Shown piece after piece: positions 292 to 41,873 of a stretch of 64,000 nucleotides of DNA (positions are counted from its first letter, which is position 1; each line of letters starts with the position of its first letter). This DNA comes from Flavobacteriales bacterium (GTDB lineage Bacteria > Bacteroidota > Bacteroidia > Flavobacteriales_F > PHOS-HE28), in NCBI GenBank assembly GCA_016705955.1, contig JADJKO010000007.1:128944-192943 (forward strand), read 5' to 3'. The notes beneath the pieces were generated by a model, which saw only the letters and a program-made list of their open reading frames with translations, searched no databases and was not told the DNA's origin. Both the position numbers and the translations under genes were made by a program.

Positions 292-1403
292 TCAAGGAGG
301 ACCCGGATCCTGGAACGCCGGGTTGTTCAGGAACTCATCGTCCGTGAGCGTGTGCAGGAAGGCTAGCAACTGGGCTTTCTTCTCCGGGGTCAAGCTCAAT
401 CCTCCCTGCGTGAACTTCATGAATGGAGAAATGGTAGGCGATGGATGACCACCACTGTTGTAATGTTCGATCACCTCTTCCAGGTTCTCGAAACGTCCGT
501 CATGCATGTACGGAGCGCTTACTGCCACATTGCGCAATGATGGCACTTTGAAGAGACCCATGTCCTGGGGAAGTCCGGTTACACCGCCGCGGCCAAGATG
601 GGTGAATATGCTGTCCAATCCGTTGTTGCGCATGGAGCCATCCGTGAACCGGGCGCCGCCATGTGGGTGGCAATGGAAACAATCCGCACCCCACTGTCCG
701 CCCAAGCCCAAGGAGGGATCGCCACCTTCCTGTTGCGTCAGTAGGAAGCCGAGTTGCTCCTCCGGTGTCAATTGCTCTTCACCACGCATGAACTTGTCGA
801 AGCGTGAGTTCCGCTGATCATCGTCCGCACGAATTGCGCGATCGCCTTCGCGGTCTTGTACTTATCGATCGTCGTGCTTCCGAAGGCAGCTTGATAGAGC
901 GCCACGTACGCGGGATCCGCCTGCAACTTGGCCACGGCGTTCGGCCAGGTCTCGTGCATCTCGATCACGTTCTCCACCGGCCCCAGGATCTGGTCCTCCA
1001 AGCGCGGGGCACGGCCATCCCAGAAGAATTGGTGCTCCCACCCGAGGTTCTGCAGCACCATGCTGTTGCGGTTTCCTTGGATCCCGTCGATCCCCGTACT
1101 GAACCGGGAGCCGTGATCGCTGAACGCAAAGACCTGTGCATGGCAGTCAGCGCAACTCTGCGTATTGTTCCCGCTTAGTCTTTCCTCATAGAAGAGGAAG
1201 CGCCCCAACGTCACCCCTTCCACGGTCATCGGGTTGTCCGCCGGGATCGTCATCGGCGGGAAGTTGGCAGGAATGACCAATGCATAGGGCGTCGTCACCA
1301 CTCCGTTGTCCTCCTCCTCCTGCTGCTTGTCAGGCTTGCATGTCACGAAAAGCCCGGTGATCAACAGGCCCAGGAACAATGGATGTCGGACGTGGAACTT
1401 CAT
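292..1403 (-). pseudogene. di-heme cytochrome c peroxidase (CCP/MauG/MbnH family) lipoprotein, copy A; disrupted by a 1-nt frameshift near 808-812
   Basis: Two adjacent minus-strand ORFs, 768..1403 and 292..789. The N part has a lipobox signal (LFVTC) and the first haem motif CADCH. The C part has the second haem motif CFHCHPHGGARFTDG. Joining them reconstructs ...MISG-NSRFDKFMRGEE..., which matches copy B, if one A is restored in a GGAAC run. Confidence 0.7.
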
Positions 1404-2407
1404 GGTACTTGATCAATGGTTCGTTCGTCGGTGAGCGCGTTCAGGAAGGCGATGAGATCCAACTTCTGCTCTGGACTCAAGTCAAAGGTCCGCATTTCAG
1501 GATCGCGGTTCACGTGTGGCAGCCCGCCACTTGCAAAATGGTCGATGACCTGCTCCATGGTGCTCATACTTCCGTCGTGCATATACGGGCCGGTGCGTGC
1601 GATGTTCCGCAAGGTCGGGGTCTTGAAGCGGCCGTTGTCCGCTGGGTCCAGTGTGATGCGTTCGCGACCAACATCCGCGTAGGTCAGGTACAGCCCGATA
1701 TTGTGGTAATCATGGTCGCTGAGGTCATGTCCATTGTGGCACGCCGTATAATTCAATTCATCATTGTTGAAGAGGACCATGCCCCTGATCTCGCTATCGG
1801 AAAGTGCGGTCTGCTCTCCTTGCATGTAGCGGTCATACCGCGACCAACCACTGATCAAGGTGCGCTCATAGCAAGCGATCGCCCGCGAAAGGTTCCACGC
1901 GTTCAAGGGTTCACCGAACGCCTTCATGGCAAGTGTGTTGTATGGCTCTTGGTATCGGAGTGCCGTGGCCACTTGATTGATGTTGTGATCCATCTCCACC
2001 TCATCGTGGATCGGCGCGATCACCTGCTGCTCCAAGGTCGGCACACCGCCATCACGGAAGAAGGCACGGTGGTAGGCGACATTCGCCAGCGAAGGCGCGT
2101 TGCGCATACCCAATTGACCATCCACGCCGCCGCTCAATGCGGTGGTGTCGCTGAACGCGTGATCGGGGAAGTGACACGAAGCGCAACTGATCGATCCATC
2201 ACGCGACAACCGTGGATCGAAGAAGAGTGCCTTGCCCAACGCCGTGGATGCCACAGTGAGTGGATTATCCGCTGGAACATCGGGTGCCGGAAATCCAACA
2301 GGCAACACCAGCGCGAATGGCGCATCGCTTTCCGTGGGATCCGGATCGGACTCGCGCCGACATCCGCCGAGAACGAGCATCACCGCTATCGGCACCAACC
2401 ACTTCAT
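1400..2407 (-). CDS. cytochrome c peroxidase / MauG / MbnH-like di-heme family lipoprotein, copy B
   Basis: Lipoprotein signal (LVLGGC). N-terminal haem motif CASCH and the conserved CCP core (PSLANVAY, WDGR-like, YMHDGS). The second motif reads YTACH rather than CXXCH. The stop overlaps the copy A start by 4 nt. Confidence 0.8.
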   Translation of the reverse strand: MKWLVPIAVMLVLGGCRRESDPDPTESDAPFALVLPVGFPAPDVPADNPLTVASTALGKALFFDPRLSRDGSISCASCHFPDHAFSDTTALSGGVDGQLGMRNAPSLANVAYHRAFFRDGGVPTLEQQVIAPIHDEVEMDHNINQVATALRYQEPYNTLAMKAFGEPLNAWNLSRAIACYERTLISGWSRYDRYMQGEQTALSDSEIRGMVLFNNDELNYTACHNGHDLSDHDYHNIGLYLTYADVGRERITLDPADNGRFKTPTLRNIARTGPYMHDGSMSTMEQVIDHFASGGLPHVNRDPEMRTFDLSPEQKLDLIAFLNALTDERTIDQVP

Positions 2408-3156
2408 AGAACCTCCAGGGCCATGCTGCGTCGCACGTTGCGCGTAAGCTTGAGCGCCAATGGATAATTCCCTCCGTGTGATTGGTTCTCCGTGGTCACA
2501 TTGATCGTGTCCTGCGGTGTGGCCAGGAAATGATCCACCGCGATGCGCAGGACCAATTTCGTCGTGACATCCTTCTCCGTACCAAAAGGCAACGCCGGGA
2601 ACAATTCCGCCGTGGTGAAGCAGGTGTCCATACCGGTGTGGACCGAGAAGGTCGACAAGAGCGGACCAGTGCCATTCGGATCCGGATCGTAGCGACCATC
2701 GAACAACACGAATTTGTAACCGGTGGCCCAGCTCCAGTACATCCCGTTGTTCACGCTCATCGGGTGTTCATCACCATACAACGCAGCATTGGTGTAGTTC
2801 AGGTCATGCGGCAATCCGATCCCCGCACGCATGCCGAGCCAATTCCCGACAGGCACTTGGAGGTCGAACTGGAATGGGCCGTTCCCCAGATCGAGCAGAC
2901 GCACTTGTTCCATGGTCGACTCTCCGGTCGCGCTCACCAGACGCAGATCGCTCAAGTACATCTTGAGGAACTCCACTTGGAACCGGTAGCCATGCGGGGC
3001 GATATAAGGCGTGTACCGCTGCAAGGGTTGGCCGTTCCACTCCGGGCGCACTTCGATCCGCAAGGTGGAAGCCGCCGTACGCGGCTTTACCGGTTCGTCG
3101 GTGCGGCAGGCCATCAACAAAGCTGCACAGACGAAGAAGAAGAGGGATCGGGTCAT
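2404..3156 (-). CDS. MbnP-like lipoprotein, probable partner of the di-heme peroxidase (MbnP/MbnH-type metallo-mystery pair)
   Basis: A lipobox signal (LLMAC) on a 250-aa protein with no enzyme motifs, encoded directly upstream of the MauG/MbnH-like peroxidase with a 4-nt overlap. This is the genomic arrangement of MbnP-MbnH pairs. The family assignment is by context and size only. Confidence 0.4.
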   Translation of the reverse strand: MTRSLFFFVCAALLMACRTDEPVKPRTAASTLRIEVRPEWNGQPLQRYTPYIAPHGYRFQVEFLKMYLSDLRLVSATGESTMEQVRLLDLGNGPFQFDLQVPVGNWLGMRAGIGLPHDLNYTNAALYGDEHPMSVNNGMYWSWATGYKFVLFDGRYDPDPNGTGPLLSTFSVHTGMDTCFTTAELFPALPFGTEKDVTTKLVLRIAVDHFLATPQDTINVTTENQSHGGNYPLALKLTRNVRRSMALEVL

Positions 3157-3304
3157 TTCATCTTGATGCTCACCGATAAGGACCCGGCAAGCGTCCCAAA
3201 ACTAAGCCCACACCCGTCGGGCACAGGTTGATACCGATCAGGTCATTGGTGCAACTCGTGGAAAGCCAAGGAGCGCTTGCCGATGCCCGGTTATCTTCCC
3301 GGCC

Positions 3305-6300
3305 ATGTTCACCGTGCTCAGGAGCAGCGCCGGCGCAGGCAAGACCCATGCCCTGGTAAAGAATTACCTGCGCCTATGTCTGGCCACGGACAATGCCACC
3401 GCGTACCGGCACGTACTCGCACTCACCTTCACCAACAAAGCGGCCAGCGAGATGAAGGAGCGCGTGGTGCGCTATATGGAACAGCTCGCCGCTGGCGACC
3501 ATGCATCGGCACCCATCCAGGATGTCCTGAGCGATCTACAACGAACGGCTCATCTGGATCAAGCGTCCACGTCCGACCGCGCGAAAAAGGTCCTGCACCA
3601 CATGCTTCATCATTGGGATGAAGTGGCCATCAGCACCATCGATGCGTTCACGCGCAGGGTGGTCCGTCCGTTCTCACGGGATCTGCAATTGGATCAGGAT
3701 CTGCGCATGACCACCGAGCACGAGTGGTACAGGGAAAGTGCAGTGAAAGCCGTGATCGCCGAGGCGGGGATCAACGCACCGCTCACCGAACTGCTCACAG
3801 CGGCATGCGAACAACTCTTGGATGACGAGGCGCGTTGGGATCCTGCGCTTCCCCTCTCTGAACTCGGAAAGGAACTGGACAAGGAATCGTCCATCGCTCC
3901 ACTGGCCGCTTTGCACGGCATGGATGCGGAAACGGTGATGGCCTTGACCGAGGGCCTTCGAAAGGAAACAGGAGCCTATGAGCGCGCGGCGCAAAGCCTT
4001 GGCAAGCGCATTGTTGAAGGGATCCAAGCAGCAGGGATCACTCCCGAGGAACTTGCTGGCGGAAAGAACGGCTACCATTCCTTCTTCCGGAAGTTGGCCG
4101 CCTTCGGCGATGAATGGCTGGAACCATCCGCGACCGCACGCAAGGCGTTCGACAATGACAAATTGGGAAGTGGCAAGATCAAAGGTGCTGCCGTAGCCGC
4201 GCTGGAGGAACTTGGTCCGCACCTGCACGCGTGGTTCGCAGAGGCGAACGAACTGCTCGCCTTGGGCCAGCGGGATCATTTCGTCCGGGCTGCTGTACTG
4301 CGCGAATTGCCCTCCGCATTCGCGTTGATCGAACTGGATCGAAGTCTGCGCATGTTGAAGGAAGCGGATGGCGTGGCCTTCTTCAGTGATCTCACACGTC
4401 TGGTCGCCCAAGTGGTCCGCGATGAACCCGCACCATTCATCTTCGAACGGTTGGGTGAACGCTACCGGCATTTCCTGTTGGATGAATTCCAGGACACGTC
4501 CTTGCTCCAATGGCACACCTTGCTTCCGTTGATCCACAACGCGCTTTCCAGCGGCGGAAGTGCATTGCTCGTAGGCGATGCGAAGCAGGCGATCTATCGC
4601 TGGCGGAATGGTGAGGTCCGGTTGTTCACCACACTGCCAGGTCTCTTCCCTCCGGCCAGGACACCGGTTGAACGCGAATACGAACAAGCACTTCGATCGA
4701 ACGATCACCCGATCGAACCACTGGCGATCAATCACCGATCGGCCTCGACCATCATCGAATTCAATAACGGCGTTTTTGGTGCATTGGCTGCGACACTTCC
4801 GGAGAGCTTGCGCCCGGTATACACCGCGCACGAACAAATAGTACGACGCAGTGAACCGGGGCGCGTGCGAATGGAACGCCCATCCGATAGCGAACCAACC
4901 GAGGAGCGGGCTGCCACCATGGACGAGTTCGTGCTTCGGAGCGTTCGTGATGCGGAGGACGATGGCTTCGCACCAGGGGATATCGCGGTGCTGGTGCGCA
5001 CTGCGGCGATCGGGCAAACAATATCGCGTGTCCTCACGGAAGCGGGCTACTCGGTCACTTCACCGGACGGTTTGAGATTGGAGGGTGATGATCTTGCCGA
5101 ATGCCTCATCGATCTGCTTCGTGTAGTTCACACGAGTGATCCCGCTGCTGCAACGCGCGTAGTACAATACCGCGTACGCATCAGAGCGTCAGCGAGCGAC
5201 GAACAAGTCGATCCGTTCGGAACAGCCACGAAAGGCTTCGACCCAGTGGCTGTGGTAAGGACCTTGTTGGCGGATCACGGATCACTCACGCTACGCACCA
5301 CGATCAACGAGTTGATCGGGCGTTTGGCACAAGCGATCGACGCTTCGCCCGATCCACACCTGCTCACGCTCATGGATGAAGCACACGCCTTCGGCATTGC
5401 GCATGGCCAGGACATCGGTGCCTTCCTGGAACATTGGGACCGCAGCGGCAAACGGCGGAACACCGCAGCGCCAGTGAATGCACAGAGCATCCAAGTGATG
5501 ACCGTACACAAGGCGAAGGGGTTGGAATTCCCTGTCGTGATCATCCCCAGCACGCGAATGGCCGCAGGCGGCACACAGCGTGAGCGCTTGTGGATCCAAC
5601 CCGGAACGGCTGTCCCGGAACTCGAACATGCCTTGGTGGCGAAGAGTGCGATCCTCCGCGATGCAGCGCTGCCGGAGATCCGCGAGGAGGACGATCTGCG
5701 AAAACTCGATGAGCTCGACCTCCTCTACGTGGCCTTCACACGCGCCGTGCAGCAACTTCACGTGTTCCTTCCTAATTCCAAACCGGACGAACTGACCAAA
5801 GGCCTTCAGAAGTACATGGAAGATCACGGACATCCCGACGTGCTCGATACCGGTGAACGGACCGGGCCATGGACGGCGCGAACCGCTGATCCCACCGGAT
5901 CGATCACTATCGCCATGGGCACACCACCCGGTCTTGCCATTCGTTTCGAAGCGACCGAGCACTGGGACCCGGCCGATCCGGATCCGTACCGCCGATATGG
6001 CAATGCGGTCCATGCGATCCTTAGCAGGGTCGATCATCCGGAGGACCTGGAGCGAGCGATCTCCACGACGATCCTGGAAGGGCTGATCCCTGAAACGGAT
6101 GCGATGGTTCTGCGCGATCGGCTTGACCCGCTGCTACGTTCGGAAGAGCTTATTCCTTGGTTCGGTAGCGGAGTGAAGGTGCGCACGGAGAGCGCGATCA
6201 TCGATGCGAGCGGAAGAACACACCGCCCCGACCGCGTCGTCTTCGATGGAGATACGGTTCGCGTCCTCGATATCAAGACCGGTGCCTCTGATGAACGACA

Positions 6301-6861: not shown

Positions 6862-9489
6862 CTAGCGCAAGAGCGAGAAATGTCCGGTGTACTCCTTGGC
6901 GAAAGAACCCCACTCCTTGATGCGTGCGGTGTACACGAAGATGCTTTGCGGTGATCCATCACCACTCCATCCTTCTTGCGGATCCGTGGTGCGGAAGACC
7001 AAGTGCCCCCAGCGATCCACGATCACGAGCTCGTATTCGCGCGCACCGGTCACAATGGGTCGCCATACTTCATTGTGTCCGTCACCATCCGGGGTGAAGG
7101 CCGTCGGGGCGTAGAACAAGTGGTCGCTCACGATCACCAGTCGTGTGGTGCTGTCCGCACAACCATGTTCCGTGGCCACCCATTGCTTGATCACATACTG
7201 ACCGGCCTCCGGGAATTCGTATTCGAACCGTGGTTCGTTCACCACCGCTTCACCGATGCTGTACTCCCACTCCACTGCCAGCGACGAGTAATCCTCCACC
7301 GTGATCCGCGGATCAAGCAAGCTGACCTCCTCAGGCAATGCGGTGAACGCGGCCACCGGCATGGGATAGACCTCCACCGCGCCTGGATCGGTGTGCGTGA
7401 TGCTCGCTATGCAACCGGTCGTTGTGGTAGCGGTCAGTGACACTGTGTATGTTCCTGCTTGGGAATAGGTGTGTACCAACGCACTATCCATACTGGTCGT
7501 TCCATCACCCAAGTTCCATTCAAGACTCATCGGAGTCCATGCGGTCGCAAGGCTGGCGAACGGGAACTCCGCACCAACGCACGCCAACGAACCGTTGATG
7601 AAGTCCACCTCGGGATATGGGTACACGACCAGGGAATCCGTGTAGCTCGCTGTGCAGCCGAACTCGGTCATCGTTACTGTGACCGGATACACACCGGGCG
7701 ACGGATAGGCACTGTGGGATTGTATGCTACCGGACGCACTTGGAGAACCCACCGCACCGAAATCCCACAACACACTCACACCGCCTGTTGCCGCACCGAG
7801 CGCCGTGAAGAGCGCGATCTCTCCTGGGCATCGGATCGGTGGTCGGTAGAAGAACGCATTCGGCGCGGCATGGACATCGAAGATGCGCGATGTGGTATCG
7901 GTACACACCGGGCCATTGGTCGCGATCATCGTGATCGTAAAGAATCCTTGGGCGCCATAGGTCCATGAGGGAGACTCCTCCACACTCTGGTCCAAGCTCG
8001 TTGAGGGATCACCGAAGTGCCATTCGTAGCCCGTGGCATCAGTACTCTCGTTCACGAATGCATGCGTCAATGAAACGCAGTATTCGGCTTGCTCAGCGAA
8101 GGCCGCTTCCGGTTGCGGATACACCTGCACATTCGCGGTGAAACTGTCCGTGCAACCGAAGTCACTTACTGTGAGCGTGACCGGCATCACGCCATTCGCC
8201 ACGAAATCCGCAGTGACCTGCATGCCCGATGCGCTACTCGGTGTGGCGCCGATCCCCAGATCCCAAGTGACCGTTGCGGTGTTCAGGTTGAACGGCCCGG
8301 TGGCCACAAGCGTCACCGTTTGCGGGTCGCAGAGGATCGGCGGCGGAAGGAAGGCCGGATCAAGCGGTGGTGCCACGAGATAATCCGCGATCGTGGTGTC
8401 CGCGCAAGGCGCGCCTGGATTCGCGATCAGCGTAACGGTGTAGGTTCCCGGAGCCGGGTAGGTGTAGGATGGTTCCGCCTGCGTGGATACATCCGCTGTG
8501 GTCGTGGTGTCGCCGAAATCCCAGGAGTAGCTCTGCGCACCAATGCTCTGGTTCGTGAAGTCCTGCGTAAGGCCGGAGCAGGCCTGCGTTCCGGATTGAG
8601 CGGCGATCACCGCTGTGACCGAGGCATCACACAACACCACGCGGAACATGAAATCCCGGCGTGCGGTCCCGATCAGGACACCATTACGGTACTCCGATAC
8701 ACAGACCCCGACGGTGAAAGTGCCTTGCACCGTGGGGTGGACCGTAAGCAGGCCCGTCACTGGATCGATGGCCAACGGCGGGTTGCTATCCATCGGGTAG
8801 GTTCCCGAATATCCGGGTGCATAGTTCACCTCCATGTACGGCGGCGCTGGTGCAAGTGGTGCTGGCTGAATGGCGTCCGCACCTTGGTACGGCGCACACA
8901 AACCATACACGAGTTGATCACCATCCGGATCCGATGCACTGTGATCGAAGCTCATGTCCTGTCCCATGCACAGGGCGATGGGCGGATAGTCATTGAACCG
9001 TGGTGACCCATTGATCGCATTCGGCGGGCCAGGGATCCAAACCGTGCATGTGATGCCTTGTTGCCCATTCAGGTTCACCATGGCCGGTGTCCTGCAGCAC
9101 CGTTGGTAACTGATGGTGTACCCACCGGCGATGGGCGGCAAGGTCATGACCTGCACATACTCGGTGCTGGCCACGCACACCGTCGGTGGCGCAGAGAGGC
9201 ACGGGTCATTCAGTTCAACCGGCACGGTGGTCTCACCGGGAAAGTTCACGGAGAAGCTATTGATCAACGATCCCGCTGAGTTGTACACCGCCAACTGCGC
9301 TTGGCTGTCGAAGACGGTCCCGTTCACATTGTCCGGTCCACAATCACGGTAGAGCCGTAGCGTGACGCGATACTGGTTCCCGCCCAGATGATCGTAGAAC
9401 ATGTCCCCACCGATGATGTGCGTCGCGAAGGATCCCAGCGCGAACGCCAAACCGGCGAGGCAGAGGATCGTGCGCTGCAGGTGGTTCAT
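6862..9489 (-). CDS. secreted PKD-domain protein with T9SS type-B C-terminal sorting domain (gliding-motility-associated CTD) and a cysteine-rich N-terminal module
   Basis: Signal peptide. PKD-like WDFGD motifs. C-terminus FTPDGDGHNEVW...HFSLLR matches the type-B T9SS CTD. The N-terminal ~300 aa are Cys-rich (RDC, RCCR, GVCV, LCDAS) and shared with the next gene. Confidence 0.75.
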   Translation of the reverse strand: MNHLQRTILCLAGLAFALGSFATHIIGGDMFYDHLGGNQYRVTLRLYRDCGPDNVNGTVFDSQAQLAVYNSAGSLINSFSVNFPGETTVPVELNDPCLSAPPTVCVASTEYVQVMTLPPIAGGYTISYQRCCRTPAMVNLNGQQGITCTVWIPGPPNAINGSPRFNDYPPIALCMGQDMSFDHSASDPDGDQLVYGLCAPYQGADAIQPAPLAPAPPYMEVNYAPGYSGTYPMDSNPPLAIDPVTGLLTVHPTVQGTFTVGVCVSEYRNGVLIGTARRDFMFRVVLCDASVTAVIAAQSGTQACSGLTQDFTNQSIGAQSYSWDFGDTTTTADVSTQAEPSYTYPAPGTYTVTLIANPGAPCADTTIADYLVAPPLDPAFLPPPILCDPQTVTLVATGPFNLNTATVTWDLGIGATPSSASGMQVTADFVANGVMPVTLTVSDFGCTDSFTANVQVYPQPEAAFAEQAEYCVSLTHAFVNESTDATGYEWHFGDPSTSLDQSVEESPSWTYGAQGFFTITMIATNGPVCTDTTSRIFDVHAAPNAFFYRPPIRCPGEIALFTALGAATGGVSVLWDFGAVGSPSASGSIQSHSAYPSPGVYPVTVTMTEFGCTASYTDSLVVYPYPEVDFINGSLACVGAEFPFASLATAWTPMSLEWNLGDGTTSMDSALVHTYSQAGTYTVSLTATTTTGCIASITHTDPGAVEVYPMPVAAFTALPEEVSLLDPRITVEDYSSLAVEWEYSIGEAVVNEPRFEYEFPEAGQYVIKQWVATEHGCADSTTRLVIVSDHLFYAPTAFTPDGDGHNEVWRPIVTGAREYELVIVDRWGHLVFRTTDPQEGWSGDGSPQSIFVYTARIKEWGSFAKEYTGHFSLLR

Positions 9490-9521
9490 CAGACCTTGTC
9501 GTTGTATCCTGTTCGGTGTTG

Positions 9522-11387
9522 CTATCGCAGGATGGTGAGATGACCGGAATACTCCCTTCCATCATCCATCTGGAGCACATAGAAGTAGGTCCCATCCGGA
9601 AGGCCAGCACCATCCCATTGGTTCTTGTAGTTGGTCACTTCGTACACCTTGTTCCCCCAACGACTGTAGATGGTGAGTTGGTTGTGATAGAACTCAACGT
9701 TTGTGATGTGGAAGGTCTCGTTCGTGCCGTCGCTGTTCGGGCTGAAGACGTTCGGGATCACGATATCGCCGCCCAATACCTGATAGTCCTGACTTGTCGC
9801 ATCGGTGCATCCATCGGCCGTGGTCACTTGCAGGGTGATGGTGTAGGTACCCGGCCAGGAAGTATTCCAAGTGATGAAGGGCGCGGAGGCGCCGAGGGGA
9901 TCACTATCCAATGTCCAATCCCATGTGACGAATGTTCCACCGTTGCCATTGCTCGCATCCGTCAGGTCGACCACGGTGCCCACGTACTGCGGGGAGATCG
10001 GGTTCGCATTGAACGCCGCGACAGGCAACGCGTAGTTCGTGACGAAGTCGGTGTACGAATTCGTGCAGCCATTCTCAGCCACCAATAAGGAGAACTCGTG
10101 AACGCCCGGCCCCGCGAACTGTGCGGTGACGATGCTATCGGAGGAACTCTGCGGGACGCTGCCGGCCCCGAGGATCCATTGCAGCGATGCACCCGCCCCG
10201 AACATCCCCTCCGCCACCAAGGTCACGGGGTCATTGCCACAGAATGGCTCCGGCGGCACCACGAATGGTTCCGGTGTCAAGTACACTTGGTAGGGGGTCT
10301 GCACCGTATCCGCACAGGTCGTTCCGGGATTCGCGATCTGCGTGATCACATAGGTCCCTTGGTTCTGGTACGTCCAGGTCGGGTTCTGCTCCGAGCTGAC
10401 ATCATCCACCACATCGGGATCCCCGAAATCCCACGCCCAGGTCTGCGCTCCGAAGCTGGTGTTCACGAAGGGCATGGTCAGACCAGAACACAGCAGACTT
10501 GGAGGTTGTGGTTGTATCCCTGCGACCACCGAAGCATCGCATGGCACCACTTTGAAAAGGAAATCACGACGCGTTTCCGTCAGAAGAACCCCATCGCGAT
10601 ACTCCTTCACGCAAACACCCACGGTGAAGCTGCCTTGCAAGGTGGGTGTCAGCGTGAGTTGCCCGGTCACAGGATCGATCGCGATGGCAGGATCGGAATC
10701 GATGGGATACGTCTCGGAATATCCAGCTGCCCATGGTAAGAATGAATAAGGCGGGGCCGATGGAGGATTCGGTTGCGGATCGAGCGAGGTGCCACCATTG
10801 TATGGTGTACACAGTTCGTAGGTCAAGGAGTCGCCGTCGGGATCAAAAGCACTGTGGTCGAAGATCAATGGGGCATTCAAGCACAGCGCGACAGGCGGCA
10901 ACTCGTTGAACCGCGCAGAACTGTTGGAAACGATACCTGAACCGGGGATCCGCATGGTCACAGTAAGACCCAGATCTCCCGGGGTGATCAGGTTACTGAT
11001 GATCGCGGTCCGGCAACAGCGCTGGTAGGTGAGTTGATAACCATCAGCCGTAGGAGGCAGGTCGAAGATGCCTGTATAGGAGGTGGTCTCCACACACACA
11101 TCGGGTGGAAGCGTGAGGCAGGGTGAATCCAACGTGATCGGGATGAACGACCCACCGGGAAAGCTGAGCGATTGGGTGTAGAGCAGGCCGCCTTGGCCGT
11201 CGAACACGCCGATGACCGCGCTCGCGTCGAACGCGATACCAGTACAGTCCCGATAGAGCTTCAGGGTGACCTGGTACTGGCTTCCGCCCAAGTGATCGTA
11301 GTAGAATTCTCCGCCGATGATGTGGGTGGCGTTCAACTGGGACGCACCCAAGAGTGTGGTAACCAACAAGGTCAAGCGCGACATCAT
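9522..11387 (-). CDS. paralogous secreted PKD-domain protein with T9SS type-B C-terminal sorting domain
   Basis: Same N-terminal Cys-rich module (THIIGGEFYYDHLGGSQYQVTLKLYRDC...RCCR...GVCV...PCDAS). PKD motif WDFGD. C-terminus FSPNSDGTNETF...HLTILR. The likely start is the Met before signal peptide MMSRLTLLVTTLLGASQLNA. The upstream in-frame extension to 11483 is probably not translated. Confidence 0.75.
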   Translation of the reverse strand: MMSRLTLLVTTLLGASQLNATHIIGGEFYYDHLGGSQYQVTLKLYRDCTGIAFDASAVIGVFDGQGGLLYTQSLSFPGGSFIPITLDSPCLTLPPDVCVETTSYTGIFDLPPTADGYQLTYQRCCRTAIISNLITPGDLGLTVTMRIPGSGIVSNSSARFNELPPVALCLNAPLIFDHSAFDPDGDSLTYELCTPYNGGTSLDPQPNPPSAPPYSFLPWAAGYSETYPIDSDPAIAIDPVTGQLTLTPTLQGSFTVGVCVKEYRDGVLLTETRRDFLFKVVPCDASVVAGIQPQPPSLLCSGLTMPFVNTSFGAQTWAWDFGDPDVVDDVSSEQNPTWTYQNQGTYVITQIANPGTTCADTVQTPYQVYLTPEPFVVPPEPFCGNDPVTLVAEGMFGAGASLQWILGAGSVPQSSSDSIVTAQFAGPGVHEFSLLVAENGCTNSYTDFVTNYALPVAAFNANPISPQYVGTVVDLTDASNGNGGTFVTWDWTLDSDPLGASAPFITWNTSWPGTYTITLQVTTADGCTDATSQDYQVLGGDIVIPNVFSPNSDGTNETFHITNVEFYHNQLTIYSRWGNKVYEVTNYKNQWDGAGLPDGTYFYVLQMDDGREYSGHLTILR

Positions 11388-11729
11388 GTTCCTTCGACCG
11401 GTTCGGGGGGATGGAAGTTGCCTGTATGTCATGGACCCGGGTCGAGTGTGAAAGTAGCGGTTCACGGACATATGGTTTCCCACTCACCGACCGAAATAGG
11501 AAGATAGCGGCCTTGGTCGCCATCGATCATCTGAGCCACCCGGAGTTGTTCCGGGTACGCCTTTGCCAGGACCTCGTGGATCACGGAACGCCCACCGACC
11601 ACTTGGACCTCGGTGAATCGGCCCGGTCCGTCGATCCGGTAGTAATGCGGTGCTCCGTTCAATCGGCGGTAGACCGGAAACCCTTCCCGGGATCCTGCAA
11701 CGGCGTGCGAATTATCTTCCCCCTCTTCC

Positions 11730-22774: not shown

Positions 22775-23884
22775 CTACTTCATATTGTTCACCGCCTCCT
22801 TGTCCAGGTCCTCACCCGGCTCATCGTCCATCGGCTTGGACGCGGTGTACACGCGCCAACGGGCCAGCACGGCTTCCATATCGGCAGGTAGTGCGCTTTC
22901 GAATTGCATGCGCTTACCGGTGATCGGGTGATCGAAAGCAAGCGTGCGCGCGTGCAGCGCTTGACGCGGCAAAAGCTTGAAGCAATTCTCCACGAACTGC
23001 TTGTACTTGGTGAATGTCGTTCCCTTCAACACACGATCGCCTCCATAGTTGGCATCATTGAACACCGGGTGACCGGTGTACTGCATGTGTACCCGGATCT
23101 GGTGCGTGCGTCCCGTTTCCAGTTTGCACTCGACGAGTGAGATGTAGCGGAAGCGCTCCAGCACCTTCCACCGCGTGACCGCAGGTTTGCCTTGATCGCC
23201 TTCCGGGAAAACGAATTGCACGGTGCGGTCCTTCACACTGCGACCGATGTGCCCTTCGATCACGCCTTCCTCCTCCTCCAAATCGCCCCACACGATCGCG
23301 GAATAACGTCGGTCGCTGGTGCGATCGAAGAACTGCCGCGCGAGGTGCGTCAACGCTTCCTCGGTCTTGCCGACCACCATCACACCGCTGGTGTCCTTAT
23401 CAAGACGATGTACAAGGCCCGGACGCGGGATATCGGCGCCGGGCGTGGAGGGCAACTTGCCGAAGTGGAAGAGCAGCGCGTTCACCAATGTCCCCGTCCA
23501 GTTGCCATGACCCGGATGTACCACCAGCCCTGCTGGCTTGTCGATCACCAACACGTGCTCGTCCTCGTAGATCACCGACAGCGGAATGTCCTCCGGCAGC
23601 AATTCCACTTCGCGCTGCGGATAAGGCAACACGATGCTGATCACATCACCGGGCTTCACCTTCTGGCTTGGCTTGGCCGCCTTGTCGTTCACCAGCACGT
23701 TGCCCGCCTTCGCTGCCACTTGGATGCGATTGCGCGAGGTGTGCGCTAACCGCACGAAAAGGAACTTGTCCAGCCGGATCAGCGATTGCTTCGGATCGCA
23801 GACGATGCGGTGATGCTCGTACAGTTCATCCTCCGAAGAATTGTCCGAAGGAGGTCCCGAATGACTGAGTGCTTCGGTGGCCAT
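22775..23884 (-). CDS. rluD: RluD-family 23S rRNA pseudouridine synthase (S4 domain plus RluA catalytic domain)
   Basis: S4-like N-terminal region. Catalytic motif HRLDKDTSGVMVV with GRTHQIRVHM. Confidence 0.85.
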   Translation of the reverse strand: MATEALSHSGPPSDNSSEDELYEHHRIVCDPKQSLIRLDKFLFVRLAHTSRNRIQVAAKAGNVLVNDKAAKPSQKVKPGDVISIVLPYPQREVELLPEDIPLSVIYEDEHVLVIDKPAGLVVHPGHGNWTGTLVNALLFHFGKLPSTPGADIPRPGLVHRLDKDTSGVMVVGKTEEALTHLARQFFDRTSDRRYSAIVWGDLEEEEGVIEGHIGRSVKDRTVQFVFPEGDQGKPAVTRWKVLERFRYISLVECKLETGRTHQIRVHMQYTGHPVFNDANYGGDRVLKGTTFTKYKQFVENCFKLLPRQALHARTLAFDHPITGKRMQFESALPADMEAVLARWRVYTASKPMDDEPGEDLDKEAVNNMK

Positions 23885-26151
23885 CAGCGTTGAATGAGCA
23901 AGCGTTCCTGCGCGATGGATGAACCATCAGGCCCCACCACCCGAACGACGTACATGCCCGGTTGCAGATCGCTGACCATCATGGTCGCAGGTTCCCGCCA
24001 CAGCTGCTGTTGGATCAACCGGCCGGTGGCATCGAGGCACTGGACCATGGAACCGTGCGTGGCACGATCGCACCGGATCATCACGGCATCGTTCGCCGGA
24101 TTCGGAAAAAGGATCATGGCACGATCCGGATCCACCGAAAGGCCTTCCTCCACAGATGCGAAAGGATCCGTGGCGGAGACGAATACCGGGCGCATCATCA
24201 GGGAACCCTCGAAACCGCTGTTCGTGAACGACCCGCTGGTGCGATAGAAGATCTTGTTCTGGTTGTTGCGGTTGCGATCGAAGCCGAGGTTCATCCGCAC
24301 GCCGTTCGTCTGCACCCAGCCCACATAGAAGGTACCCTCCACATGGATCGTGGAGTCCAATGGATATTCCACGAAGTGGTTGGCGCCGTCCAACCGGTAT
24401 TGCGGATTGGAGAAGGTGTAGTTCTGGTGCAGGATCACCTCCGGGTTCAAACTGGTCCACACCGTGATCAGGAAGGAGCCGGTCGCCGGGTTCGGTGAGG
24501 ATTGCGGATCGTTCGCCTGCGGGTTGAAGTACATCCGCACCGCGCGCAGCGAATCCTCCCCCACGATATCGTAGCGGTACGCGAGAGAGGCGCCAGCGGT
24601 GTTCAGTCCATAGCTCGATTCCGCGCTTCCATCATCGTAGGCCATGTAGTTGCTCAACTCCTGGATGAAGGTGATGGTGTCATTGCACGCACAGAGATCC
24701 GGCTCGGTGTGTGTCCAGAATTTCACGCGCCAGAACGCCGCATCCGTGGAAAGTCCGGGGTCATATTCGAAGTTGTTCGGTGCCGCAGCGATCGGGTGCT
24801 GGCTATCGAAGATCATCAACGCATTGCCGCTCGCATTCAATCCGTTGGTGAATTGGAAGACAGGGGCGGCATTCTCCTCCTTCGCCACCATGCCGTACTG
24901 GATGAACCGATCCACATTGTCCAGGTTGCGCTGCTTCGCGGTGATGCTCTGCGCCATGTAGGACGAAGGCGACTGCGCGAACTTGGCGAAGGGTACGCTG
25001 GTGTAGGTGTTCAGCAAACTGGACTCCGGATACATGTACGCCACTTCGATGAGGCGCGTGTCATCGAAGGTCCGTTGGTCACCTAACCGCACATAGTCCA
25101 AGTGCCACTGATCGAACGCACCACTCAGCGTGGCATAGTTCAGGAAGCGCATGCGGAAGCCATCCTTCAGGAAGCGGCTTTGCGTCACGGGGACCAACAC
25201 CTGCTCGAATGGCTGAAGCGGGATGTACGGTGTACGCCAGACGCGGTACCAGAGATCCTCATCCGGCGCGTAGAATTCCAGGACAAGGCTATCAATGGGT
25301 TGCACATTCACATCGCCGCTAAGGCCTTGTGGCTGGAAGAAGAAGCTGAGGTAGATGGAATCACTTGCTGGACGGAACAGGTCGATGGGCACGGAAGTGA
25401 GGTGGTCGGCGATACCGTGCGCCGTGTACTGCGCGAAATTGTACGGGTAGCCCGTGCGCGCCAATCCATCGAAGGTGGCCACACCGATGGTGGGCGGTTC
25501 GATGGGATAGGTGCCATTGATGTACACGTCATCGTCCTCCCAAAGGATCAACGGGACGACCGAGTTGTCCGCCTGGGTGTATGTGCGAGGATCCGGCGCC
25601 ACCGTGTAGATGAGAAGGGAATCCTGCAAGAGCTCCGGCGGAACGATGTGCAGCGTGTCCGGCGAAGGGCTCTGGATCGTATCGAAGATGTTGTAGGGCG
25701 GCCAGGCTTGCACCACTTCCGACGTGACCGGATACATGAGGACATTGCGCACGAGCACGGTTACATCCACGAGAGCAGTACGTGTCGTGGTCGACGGGTC
25801 GGTGAGGTCGGTGATGTACCGGAAGGTGGTATCGTCACTGAAGGCCATGTCCGGTGTCGATACTCCAGCGATCTCCAGAGCGTAGATCGTTTCCGTCAGC
25901 GTCACGTTCGCATCCGTGGACTGTGCCCATCGGCTGCGTGTGCGATCAATGGAGAAGTCATCGGCCACAGGGATCGGTTGGGTGGCGTTCTGGTAGATGA
26001 AGTACTCGTTCAACCCTACGGCTTTGCGCATGGCTGCTTGTGCCTCGGGCACCACGCGCATGCCCAGTGGCGTGAGCACTTCATCCTGTGCAAGCACAAC
26101 GGACCCGATCAACAGGAACGGAACGAATAGCAGAACGTGATCAAGGCGCAT
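23884..26151 (-). CDS. large secreted protein of unknown function with T9SS type-A C-terminal sorting domain
   Basis: Signal peptide (MRLDHVLLFVPFLLIGSVVLAQ). C-terminal LFPNPANDAV...GMYVVRVV...LLIQR Por secretion tail. The stop shares one base with the rluD start (TGATG). An upstream in-frame Met at 26247 is less likely. Confidence 0.65.
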   Translation of the reverse strand: MRLDHVLLFVPFLLIGSVVLAQDEVLTPLGMRVVPEAQAAMRKAVGLNEYFIYQNATQPIPVADDFSIDRTRSRWAQSTDANVTLTETIYALEIAGVSTPDMAFSDDTTFRYITDLTDPSTTTRTALVDVTVLVRNVLMYPVTSEVVQAWPPYNIFDTIQSPSPDTLHIVPPELLQDSLLIYTVAPDPRTYTQADNSVVPLILWEDDDVYINGTYPIEPPTIGVATFDGLARTGYPYNFAQYTAHGIADHLTSVPIDLFRPASDSIYLSFFFQPQGLSGDVNVQPIDSLVLEFYAPDEDLWYRVWRTPYIPLQPFEQVLVPVTQSRFLKDGFRMRFLNYATLSGAFDQWHLDYVRLGDQRTFDDTRLIEVAYMYPESSLLNTYTSVPFAKFAQSPSSYMAQSITAKQRNLDNVDRFIQYGMVAKEENAAPVFQFTNGLNASGNALMIFDSQHPIAAAPNNFEYDPGLSTDAAFWRVKFWTHTEPDLCACNDTITFIQELSNYMAYDDGSAESSYGLNTAGASLAYRYDIVGEDSLRAVRMYFNPQANDPQSSPNPATGSFLITVWTSLNPEVILHQNYTFSNPQYRLDGANHFVEYPLDSTIHVEGTFYVGWVQTNGVRMNLGFDRNRNNQNKIFYRTSGSFTNSGFEGSLMMRPVFVSATDPFASVEEGLSVDPDRAMILFPNPANDAVMIRCDRATHGSMVQCLDATGRLIQQQLWREPATMMVSDLQPGMYVVRVVGPDGSSIAQERLLIQR

Positions 26152-26959
26152 CGGCGGTATCTGTTTTGGAATAACGACCGGGATCGTTCCAGCCGGGTTC
26201 GGGGCGCAGGCCGGTGGTATCGGCGGTAAGCCAGATGTCGATGGCACTGCCCATGGCGACCCGGTTGTTCACATCCGCCGACGGTGATTGTCGGCGCACC
26301 CGTGCGAACGAGGAATCCGCCTTCGTATTGCATGCGCGGCACTCCACCACCACACCCACGTTCAGCGACGCCATGCTCAGTACCATGCCCACTTCGGCAT
26401 TGGAAAGTCCGATCACATCCGGCACCGGTACACGTTCACCACGATCGCCACTACCAAGGACCAACGTGATCGCTTCTCCCCTGCGGATGCGTTCATCCGG
26501 CGCGATGGGTTGGCCCTTGTACAGTTGCGCGATCACGCAATCCACACAGCGGTCCGGCTTGTATTGGAGTTCCTTCACCTTCAACCCGATGATCTCCAGC
26601 ACGGAGATGGCCTGCCGCTTGGAGAGGTCCACCAGCTTGGGCATGTCGATCATCTTCGGCTGGCTGGCATTGATCACCAAGTACACCTTCCGGCCCGGCT
26701 TCACTTCCTTGCCTCCCTCGGGATCCTGCTCCACGATGCTGCCCTTCGGCAGTTCCTCGGTGTACACCGAATCCACCACCACCGCGAAGAGATCGCGCTT
26801 CTCCAGGACCGAGTTCGCCTCATCAATGCTCCTTCCGCGCAGGTCCGGTACCAAGGCACGCACCCCGTGCCGCGTGTAGTTGCGCAACCACGCCCAGCCT
26901 CCCAGCAGCAGCAAGGCGGCCACCAGCAAAGGAGCCAGCGTAGGGAGGTAGCGTTTCAT
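26141..26959 (-). CDS. PASTA domain-containing membrane-anchored protein
   Basis: One TM helix followed by three PASTA-like repeats (VPDLRGRSIDEA..., MPKLVDLSKRQA..., VPDVIGLSNAEV...). Confidence 0.7.
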   Translation of the reverse strand: MKRYLPTLAPLLVAALLLLGGWAWLRNYTRHGVRALVPDLRGRSIDEANSVLEKRDLFAVVVDSVYTEELPKGSIVEQDPEGGKEVKPGRKVYLVINASQPKMIDMPKLVDLSKRQAISVLEIIGLKVKELQYKPDRCVDCVIAQLYKGQPIAPDERIRRGEAITLVLGSGDRGERVPVPDVIGLSNAEVGMVLSMASLNVGVVVECRACNTKADSSFARVRRQSPSADVNNRVAMGSAIDIWLTADTTGLRPEPGWNDPGRYSKTDTADAP

Positions 26960-40878: not shown

Positions 40879-41819
40879 ATGATCAAACGTCTGCTGCGCC
40901 GACTGATGTTTTCCAGGACGTTCCGTCGGCTGATCGGGTGGAGCCAACGGATCATTCTCCCGGGCTGCGAAGGGTTCAACCTGTACCGGATCTCCCGCTT
41001 CTTCGTGTCAGCCCTGGCCAGGGCCGGATCGTTACGCGCGCATCCGCTATCGCATTCAAGTTGTTCCTGGCCTTCTTCCCTGCGGTCATCGTGCTGCTCA
41101 CCCTCATCCCCTTTGTCCCGATCGAGGACTTCCAGACCAAGCTGCTGGTCACCTTCAAGGACATGATGCCGATGGAAGTCTTCAAGTTCATCCAAAGCAC
41201 GTTGGAGGATCTGGTGGTGAAGAAGCACGGGACCTTGCTCTCGATCAGTTTCCTGGTCGGTATCTACCTCGCCAGCAACAGCATCGATGCGATCCTGGCC
41301 GGATTCAGCGGAAGCGCGAATCACACCACATGGCACAGTCCCTTCAAGCAGCGCCTGCTCAGCCTTGGTCTGCTGGTAGCGCTCACCGTGCTCATGGTCA
41401 TTGCCATTCCGTTGCTCACCGTGAGCGGCACCGTGATCTACAAGTTGGACGGCCTTGGTTTCTTCACCAGTGAACTCCATGTACTGGCACTCTTCGCCGT
41501 GAAGTGGACGATCTCGGTATTGATCGTGGCCATGTCCGTTTCCTTGCTCTACAATGCGGGTGACCCGACCACGCGCCGGTTCAAGCTTTTCTCCCCCGGC
41601 GTTCTATTGGCCGTGTTCCTGATCCTCGTCGTCTCACAGGCCCTTGCATTCATGTTCGGGCACTTCACCAATTACAATGCGCTGTACGGGTCCATCGGTG
41701 CGATCCTGGCCGTGCAGCTGTGGATCTACTTCAACATGATCGCGATCCTCGTGGGCTACGAGTTGAACACGAGCATTGCCCGTGCGCGGATCCTGCACCG
41801 TTCACGGCTGGAGGTCTGA
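40879..41819 (+). pseudogene. YihY/BrkB-family membrane protein with a 1-nt frameshift near 41017-41021
   Basis: The N-terminus (MIKRLLRRL...IILPGCEGFNLYRISRFFVSALA) is in one frame. The rest (GRIVTRASAIAFKLFLAFFPAVIVLL..., 6 TM) is in the +1 frame. One C inserted into the GGCCAGG run would restore a typical YihY N-terminus. Confidence 0.7.
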
Positions 41820-41873
41820 TCCGATCCAACCTTTCCGGATACCTTCGGGCCCATGCCCGGATCAGGCACCTCC

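Follow-up and report, generated by a model that had tools for sequence, protein, structure and literature searches.

A strain-level haem-motif polymorphism and a probable consensus frameshift in a conserved MbnP-like/dihaem lipoprotein operon of Flavobacteriales

Does a haem motif with a single cysteine, lying next to an MbnP-like gene and a frameshifted paralog, mark a new kind of haem site, or does it reflect recent damage to a conserved system? The question is raised by three lipoprotein genes at positions 292 to 3,156 of a 64,000-nucleotide (nt) stretch of the Flavobacteriales contig JADJKO010000007.1 (assembly GCA_016705955.1), here called the window. The genes encode an MbnP-like protein (P) and two dihaem enzymes of the cytochrome c peroxidase (CCP)/MauG superfamily, copy B and copy A. 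Copy B reads YTACH at its second haem motif, and copy A is split by a frameshift. The best explanation overall, to which a rough probability of 0.6 can be given, is a conserved MbnP/dihaem operon carrying two real lesions, C220Y in copy B and D269H in copy A, together with a frameshift that is an artefact. The two oddities that first drew attention to the locus would then be of little significance, one a recent damaging single-nucleotide polymorphism (SNP) and the other a probable homopolymer consensus error. Of greater interest is the B family, which as a whole is without the inter-haem Trp and the axial Tyr/Met of its relatives.

Organization of the locus

The locus comprises three minus-strand open reading frames (ORFs), at 2404–3156 (250 amino acids, aa), at 1400–2407 (335 aa, copy B) and, for the split copy A, at 768–1403 together with 292–789. 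ATGA start/stop overlaps couple the genes, at 2407–2404 (MbnP-like/copy B) and at 1403–1400 (copy B/copy A). The features are as follows.

2404..3156, minus strand: MbnP-like lipoprotein gene, 250 aa; lipobox Cys17 at 3108-3106; WxW is W141-S-W143
3197..3204, minus strand: candidate operon promoter TAGTTTTG; TAnnTTTG match, 48 nt upstream of the MbnP-like ATG
1400..2407, minus strand: copy B, dihaem CCP/MauG-superfamily lipoprotein, 335 aa; CASCH at 2185-2171; Arg118, Phe291
1736..1750, minus strand: second haem motif of copy B, YTACH (residues 220-224); Tyr220 from TGT>TAT at 1749
768..1403, minus strand: N-terminal part of copy A, true coding from 1403 to about 813; lipobox Cys22 at 1340-1338; CADCH at 1154-1140; Trp128 in FFWDGRA
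811..813, minus strand: frameshift site of copy A; GG in the window versus GGG in all related assemblies (AGC GGG AAC = S-G-N)
292..810, minus strand: C-terminal part of copy A; CFHCH at 681-667; D269H codon at 600-598; Y315 in IEHYN

Each of the three proteins begins with a signal peptide that ends in a Cys, and this lipobox Cys is invariant in the orthologs (C17 in P, C16 in B, C22 in A). These cysteines, the ORFs and the ATGA overlaps bear out an earlier note on this DNA, which had described three coupled minus-strand lipoprotein genes. Copy B carries CASCH (residues 75–79) and YTACH, copy A CADCH and CFHCH. With its frame restored by one base, copy A is a protein of 370 aa with both CxxCH motifs present and 35% identity to copy B. 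Since identity is only 35%, A and B are old paralogs. A recent tandem duplication is rejected on the same figure and on the presence of both copies in nearly all related genomes.

The residues that follow the lipobox cysteines show a common pattern. All three mature proteins start with C-[RK]-x-[DE]-[DE] (CRTDEP, CRRESDPDP and CKPDKQQEEED; 3106-3090, 2360-2340 and 1338-1315, minus strand), and this start is also kept in the copy A orthologs. It resembles the surface-export signal of Bacteroidota lipoproteins, and the three-lipoprotein system might be surface-exposed.

A conserved three-gene operon

The P-B-A trio is widely conserved. A search with copy B reaches thousands of relatives, the best 120 of which are 60–70% identical proteins from Flavobacteriales metagenome-assembled genomes (MAGs). 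Among 83 loci of related Flavobacteriales, sampled for the most part at one per species, the gene order is P-B-A in 62 cases and P-P-B-A in 12, most of the others being truncated at contig ends; the trio is intact in about 75 of the 83. The neighbourhoods of the relatives contain MbnP, a dihaem gene of about 335 aa and another of about 372 aa, with the same order and the same 4-nt overlaps as in the window, flanked by the same UvrD/PD-(D/E)XK helicase and pyridine-nucleotide disulfide oxidoreductase (Pyr_redox) genes. Judged by gene order, the trio is a three-gene operon conserved in Flavobacteriales. This wide conservation escaped the earlier note, as did D269H in copy A and the loss, across the B family, of the equivalents of MauG Trp93 and Tyr294.

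The motif TAnnTTTG is the −7 promoter consensus of Bacteroidota. In 49 of 79 orthologous loci it lies no more than 150 nt upstream of the MbnP-like gene, a recurrence that fits a single inferred promoter of Bacteroidota type for the operon.

The first gene of the trio varies in form among relatives. It is doubled in some of them, and in others it lies inside a longer frame upstream of B (about 640–1000 codons from stop to stop; L011 882-3959, L013 2058-3995), which may represent a larger protein.

Natural fusions join the same kinds of domain. In P0245 an MbnP domain is joined to a dihaem domain of the A type, P0134 and P0147 each carry two dihaem domains in tandem, and other proteins of about 1100–1400 aa contain two CN_hydrolase-like plus dihaem modules; the fusion set comprises P0245, P0134, P0147 and P0125–P0133. 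Such proteins suggest that a dihaem domain commonly acts together with a second one, and with a substrate or partner domain joined to it. In the manner of a Rosetta-stone protein, P0245 supports the view that A is the enzyme acting on the MbnP-like protein.

The MbnP-like lipoprotein

The 250-aa protein matches the Pfam model MbnP (PF20243) over residues 30–220 with an E-value of 3.9e-24 and 86 bits (gathering score 27), so the hidden Markov model search proposed in the earlier note has given the MbnP-like identity that the note had suspected. Under the NCBIfam equivalog TIGR04052 ("four-Cys motif protein") it scores 48.2 bits, below the cut-off of 140. The four-Cys motif is absent, and the protein has a single Cys (C179) besides that of the lipobox. 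The window's protein keeps all 21 positions at which conservation among 80 orthologs reaches 90% or more, and W141-S-W143 is invariant in these 80 sequences.

The WxW motif has a known counterpart. MbnH turns a Trp of the WxW of MbnP into kynurenine, which forms the copper site (PMC11951088). The ortholog profile aligns the WxW of the window's family with the WnW of MbnP in PDB entry 7L6G (E 0.029, weak). A phmmer search of the MbnP-like protein itself against PDB sequences gives no match, 7L6G being reached, weakly, only through the profile, and a literature search for MbnP in Bacteroidota found nothing relevant.

Two types of dihaem enzyme

Both copies match CCP_MauG (PF03150), copy B with an E-value of 1.8e-50 and the N-terminal part of copy A with 2e-44, in agreement with the earlier assignment of two dihaem MbnH/MauG-superfamily enzymes to one operon. 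The best match among solved structures is in both cases MbnH, 6E1C (A 1e-50, B 1.8e-49). The nearest NCBIfam models are MbnH and MauG, and the scores stay under their cut-offs: against TIGR04039 (MbnH; cut-off 362.85) copy B reaches 260.6 bits and the two halves of copy A 126.9 and 106.9 bits.

The two copies differ at the residues on which MauG chemistry depends. In copy A, Y315 (IEHYN) aligns with MauG Tyr294 and with the IDIY segment of MbnH, and W128 corresponds to the inter-haem Trp93 of MauG; C22, both CxxCH motifs, W128 and Y315 are each present in 76 of 76 copy A orthologs. Copy B has Arg118 at the Trp93 position (117 of 119 close homologs and 73 of 83 orthologs) and Phe291 at the position of MauG Tyr294 and of the Met ligand of bacterial CCPs (114 of 119 and 83 of 83). 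The adjoining His290 is common and not invariant (74 of 83). The peroxidatic residues of the first haem are kept in copy B (Q128, P132, E138-M139), as is the R102-N103 motif.

A wider sample of 163 dihaem domains, one per 50%-identity cluster, places these residues in context. Trp and Tyr occur together in 97 of the 163, and Arg with Phe is confined to the three clusters nearest B. By these residues copy A is assigned to the MauG type and copy B is not. In a broader and unlikely reading, the B-type (Arg/Phe) proteins would form a new functional class that acts together with an A-type partner on MbnP-like lipoproteins in Bacteroidota.

The second haem motif of copy B

The motif reading of the earlier note, CASCH followed by YTACH, is confirmed in the window, at residues 75–79 and 220–224. 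The alignment at YTACH is sound, and copy B contains no CxxCH other than CASCH, so a misplaced second motif does not explain the Tyr. The note had also listed an altered downstream GxxFTD segment beside the Tyr; a link between the two is rejected, since orthologs with a canonical CxxCH likewise read GFDLSDH, which makes it a trait of the family.

Tyr220 results from one G>A change at position 1749 of the window (TGT to TAT). The residue at this position is Cys in 119 of 119 close homologs, in all 83 species representatives and in all 163 diverse relatives. Four proteins compared within the 90% cluster of copy B show how narrow the distribution of Tyr220 is. P0123 (MBK7384353.1) is identical to the copy B protein of the window, Tyr220 included, and P0001 (contig L001, run SRR11674041) also has Tyr220. 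P0121 (MCC6937347.1) equals the window's copy B except for Cys220, and P0122, from the species representative L005 (96.1% DNA identity), has Cys220 as well. P0121 is encoded by 10 contigs, which come from several wastewater data sets and are 99.6–99.9% identical to the window; copy A is an intact 370-aa protein wherever it is fully covered on them (four places, three with DNA). Exact look-ups of P0123 and of the window's own B protein lead to no recorded contig. Strains 99.65% identical to the window (P0121, L085–L089) thus read CTACH, and Tyr220, absent from more than 360 sampled relatives, is confined to the window (= P0123) and L001.

Tyr220 is real, since it also occurs in the independent assembly L001, whose sequence departs from that of the window at three further sites. 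It is scarcely credible that this one genome owes both its Tyr codon and its frameshift to sequencing or assembly errors: the frameshift does behave as an artefact, but the TAT codon and the linked CAT codon (His269 of copy A) are both reproduced in L001 (SRR11674041), which largely refutes the Tyr part of such a reading. Natural XxxCH single-thioether sites would be conserved throughout a lineage, and Tyr220 is not. From its distribution, YTACH is a SNP of one strain lineage and not an evolved new haem site, and the idea of a degenerate second haem site beside MbnP as an unusual feature of the system finds no support.

The likely consequence for the protein can be judged from haem attachment. 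Bacteroidota use System II. In vitro, the System II synthase CcsBA attaches no haem to peptides in which a Cys of CXXCH is changed to Ser (PMC8112865). Maturation of a YxxCH site by a System II synthase is therefore unlikely, and from the two points together the second haem of B is probably not attached in the Tyr220 strain, and B would then be unstable or lack activity.

The Tyr220/His269 haplotype

A second change accompanies Tyr220. Residue 269 of copy A is His in the window (CAT at 600-598; GAT in relatives), and because L001 shares this codon, D269H is also real. D269 is present in 76 of 76 copy A orthologs, and 159 of the 163 diverse relatives likewise have Asp at the corresponding position. 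It belongs to a conserved D-x-G motif (TDLGRGGVT in L005), of which G271 is likewise found in 76 of 76. Among 109 highly conserved positions, D269H is the sole departure of copy A.

Changes within the operon, polarised with L005 as outgroup, distribute as follows.

Branch to window and L001: nonsynonymous, B C220Y and A D269H; synonymous, 0
L001-only branch: nonsynonymous, B P30A and B S230N; synonymous, 0-1
Sister Cys220 clade: nonsynonymous, 0; synonymous, 7

The Tyr220 clade therefore has four nonsynonymous and 0–1 synonymous changes against 0 and 7 in its sister (Fisher p 0.003–0.01). The flanking helicase shows one nonsynonymous and one synonymous change on the window's branch. Relative to L005, the ratio of nonsynonymous to synonymous substitution rates (dN/dS) is 0.036 for the MbnP-like gene, 0.157 for copy B and 0.029 for copy A; because these values are low, the system was under strong constraint until very recently. 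The pattern of substitutions shows relaxed constraint on the Tyr220/His269 haplotype, and judging by the conservation of the two residues, C220Y and D269H probably impair both enzymes. Since the Cys220/Asp269 and Tyr220/His269 alleles coexist in wastewater populations, they offer a natural mutant pair for probing the function of the operon.

The same two changes can be read in the opposite direction. In the earlier note the YTACH site could hold a haem only through a single thioether, or may be haem-free; taken as a functional variant, with a singly attached second haem or as a mono-haem enzyme, and extended to D269H, this becomes an adaptive, coordinated and perhaps co-evolved remodelling of the second-haem domains in which B(Y220) works with a singly attached second haem or with none. 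The allele is at least tolerated, being carried by two independent assemblies; residue 220 aside, B deviates at just three highly conserved positions, which is within the range of the orthologs; the two changes arose on the same branch in homologous haem-2 domains of both paralogs; and single-Cys c-type haem sites do exist, in Euglenozoa. Set against this are the exclusive presence of Cys at this position in the 119, 83 and 163 sampled relatives, an allele age below 0.35% sequence divergence, the strictness of the System II synthase for both cysteines in vitro (PMC8112865) and the further nonsynonymous changes that accumulate on the haplotype. A functional YTACH site and an adaptive origin of the allele pair are both very unlikely.

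The frameshift in copy A

The split of copy A, which the earlier note had placed in an A-run, is real in the window and lies near 811–813, but the lost base is a G of GGG. The window reads AGCGGAAC, and L001, L005, L085, L086 and L087 read AGCGGGAAC. GGG is present in all six other assemblies that cover the site, so the frameshift is private to the window. The restored protein around it (..SGNSRFDKF..) is identical whether the missing base is read as G or as A. The note had named an extra base restoring copy A in the reads as a finding that would speak against it; at the level of assembled sequence, six independent assemblies, L001 among them, carry such a base, which comes near to that finding.

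Comparison with nearly identical contigs sets the deletion in a wider frame. Over 43.4 kb of the window aligned to independent contigs that are 99.5–100% identical, only two indels of the window are found; each is private to it, removes one base from a short run and disrupts an ORF. The second lies at about 41019–41020, where the window reads GCCAGGGCC and L090 and L091 read GCCAAGGGCC, and it breaks the gene of a 313-aa YihY/BrkB-family membrane protein (about 40879–41820, plus strand). Two private ORF-breaking 1-nt deletions point to residual consensus errors in this assembly. Relatives named "...tig000..." are Nanopore assemblies made with CANU and polished with Racon and medaka (PMC8012365).

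A genuine loss of the operon has to be weighed against this. Under such a reading the two point mutations, C220Y and D269H, put the system out of action, selection on it ceased, and the base missing from copy A reflects a real pseudogenising mutation. All changes on the window's branch within the operon, namely C220Y, D269H and the frameshift, would be damaging, with no synonymous change among them; nonsynonymous changes are in excess on the haplotype, and L001 adds two more in B. A copy A pseudogene should, however, recur in independent data of the same lineage, and L001, with the same Tyr220/His269 haplotype, has GGG and a frame that is open through the site. The second private deletion in the YihY/BrkB gene, with no other indels in 43 kb, also fits consensus error better. 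Pseudogenisation of the operon is accordingly rather unlikely, though less so than a functional YTACH site. Taken by itself, the frameshift is likely a consensus error, and a genuine recent mutation is the distinctly less favoured origin.

Proposed function and overall assessment

The proposed mechanism, drawn by analogy with MbnPH and MauG, assigns different roles to the two enzymes. All three proteins would be exported and lipidated, and haem would be attached at the CxxCH motifs. Copy A, with its inter-haem Trp and axial Tyr, would be driven by H2O2 into a bis-Fe(IV) state and would then oxidise W141 or W143, in the WxW motif of the MbnP-like protein, to kynurenine, giving a copper site. 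Copy B is envisaged as an obligate partner that would work without bis-Fe(IV), possibly as a peroxidase, as an electron relay or as one subunit of a heterodimer; a peroxidase-like or relay role is suggested because the peroxidatic site is intact and Arg and Phe replace Trp and Tyr. In the strain lineage of the window, C220Y in B and D269H in A hit near-universally conserved residues and would probably impair both enzymes. The 1-nt frameshift in copy A would be a residual long-read consensus error and not a biological pseudogene.

Several points weigh against this explanation. For kynurenine formation, for copper binding and for the role of B the argument is solely one of homology, and the MbnP-like protein fails the TIGR04052 cut-off and is without the four-Cys motif. 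The contrast between nonsynonymous and synonymous changes rests on 11–12 changes, and polymorphisms of very recent origin tend in general to include an excess of nonsynonymous ones. The frameshift could be genuine, and relaxed selection on the haplotype raises the plausibility of a real pseudogenising indel. A first ORF-tiling screen for other split genes, with five candidate pairs judged by Pfam, found none, although it missed the YihY/BrkB split that the comparison with near-identical contigs later revealed. The sequencing technology of the window is itself inferred, the sole link being the identity of its B protein to MBK7384353.1 from an NCBI MAG. Even so, the conserved operon with two real lesions and an artefactual frameshift is preferred, and the locus serves as an example of how strain-level lesions and long-read errors can mimic new biochemistry.

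Neighbouring genes

Two further observations concern the surroundings of the operon. Compared with the 96%-identical L005, the helicase gene shows at 4263–4267 (plus strand) two 1-nt indels that compensate each other and are separated by 4 nt. Because it is absent from the 99.6%-identical contigs, the pair is attributed to L005 or its lineage and not to the window. Large genes for type IX secretion substrates, with PKD domains and CHU_C/Por_Secre_tail, lie around the locus at 6862-11483 and 23884-26268 (both minus strand), consistent with a Flavobacteriales origin.

Comparison with known systems

Single-cysteine haem motifs occur in the mitochondrial cytochromes c of Euglenozoa, where F/AxxCH is fixed across the phylum and has its own maturation route. 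YTACH resembles them in keeping the second Cys and the His. Unlike them, it is polymorphic at the level of strains, in a family where CxxCH is otherwise universal (100%).

Canonical bacterial CCPs combine His/Met ligation of the second haem with an inter-haem Trp (PMC11892367). The enzyme of Nitrosomonas europaea (1IQC) ranks second among the structural relatives of B (3.4e-41), and its peroxidatic residues are kept, but copy B has neither Met nor Tyr at the aligned axial-ligand position. BthA of Burkholderia (6NX0) resembles copy B in one respect, as a dihaem member without the inter-haem Trp; Ser257 replaces that Trp, which is dispensable there (PMC6405878). BthA nevertheless keeps His/Tyr ligation (Tyr463) where copy B has Phe at the aligned ligand, and the match is distant (E about 1e-16).

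MauG of Paracoccus denitrificans (3L4M) shares the dihaem fold, and copy A keeps the equivalents of its Trp93 (W128) and Tyr294 (Y315). The system differs from MauG in that its substrate is not methylamine dehydrogenase and that copy B has Arg and Phe at the two positions.

The closest parallel is MbnP/MbnH of Methylosinus trichosporium OB3b (7L6G, 6E1C), in which the gene for a WxW partner likewise adjoins a MauG-like dihaem gene. The window differs in having two dihaem genes instead of one, in encoding all three proteins as lipoproteins, and in having no methanobactin operon or TonB transporter genes adjacent to the trio; the MbnP-like protein and both enzymes fall under the TIGR04052/TIGR04039 cut-offs and are not equivalogs. 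The conserved trio, so far uncharacterised, could extend kynurenine/copper chemistry of the MbnPH type to Bacteroidota.

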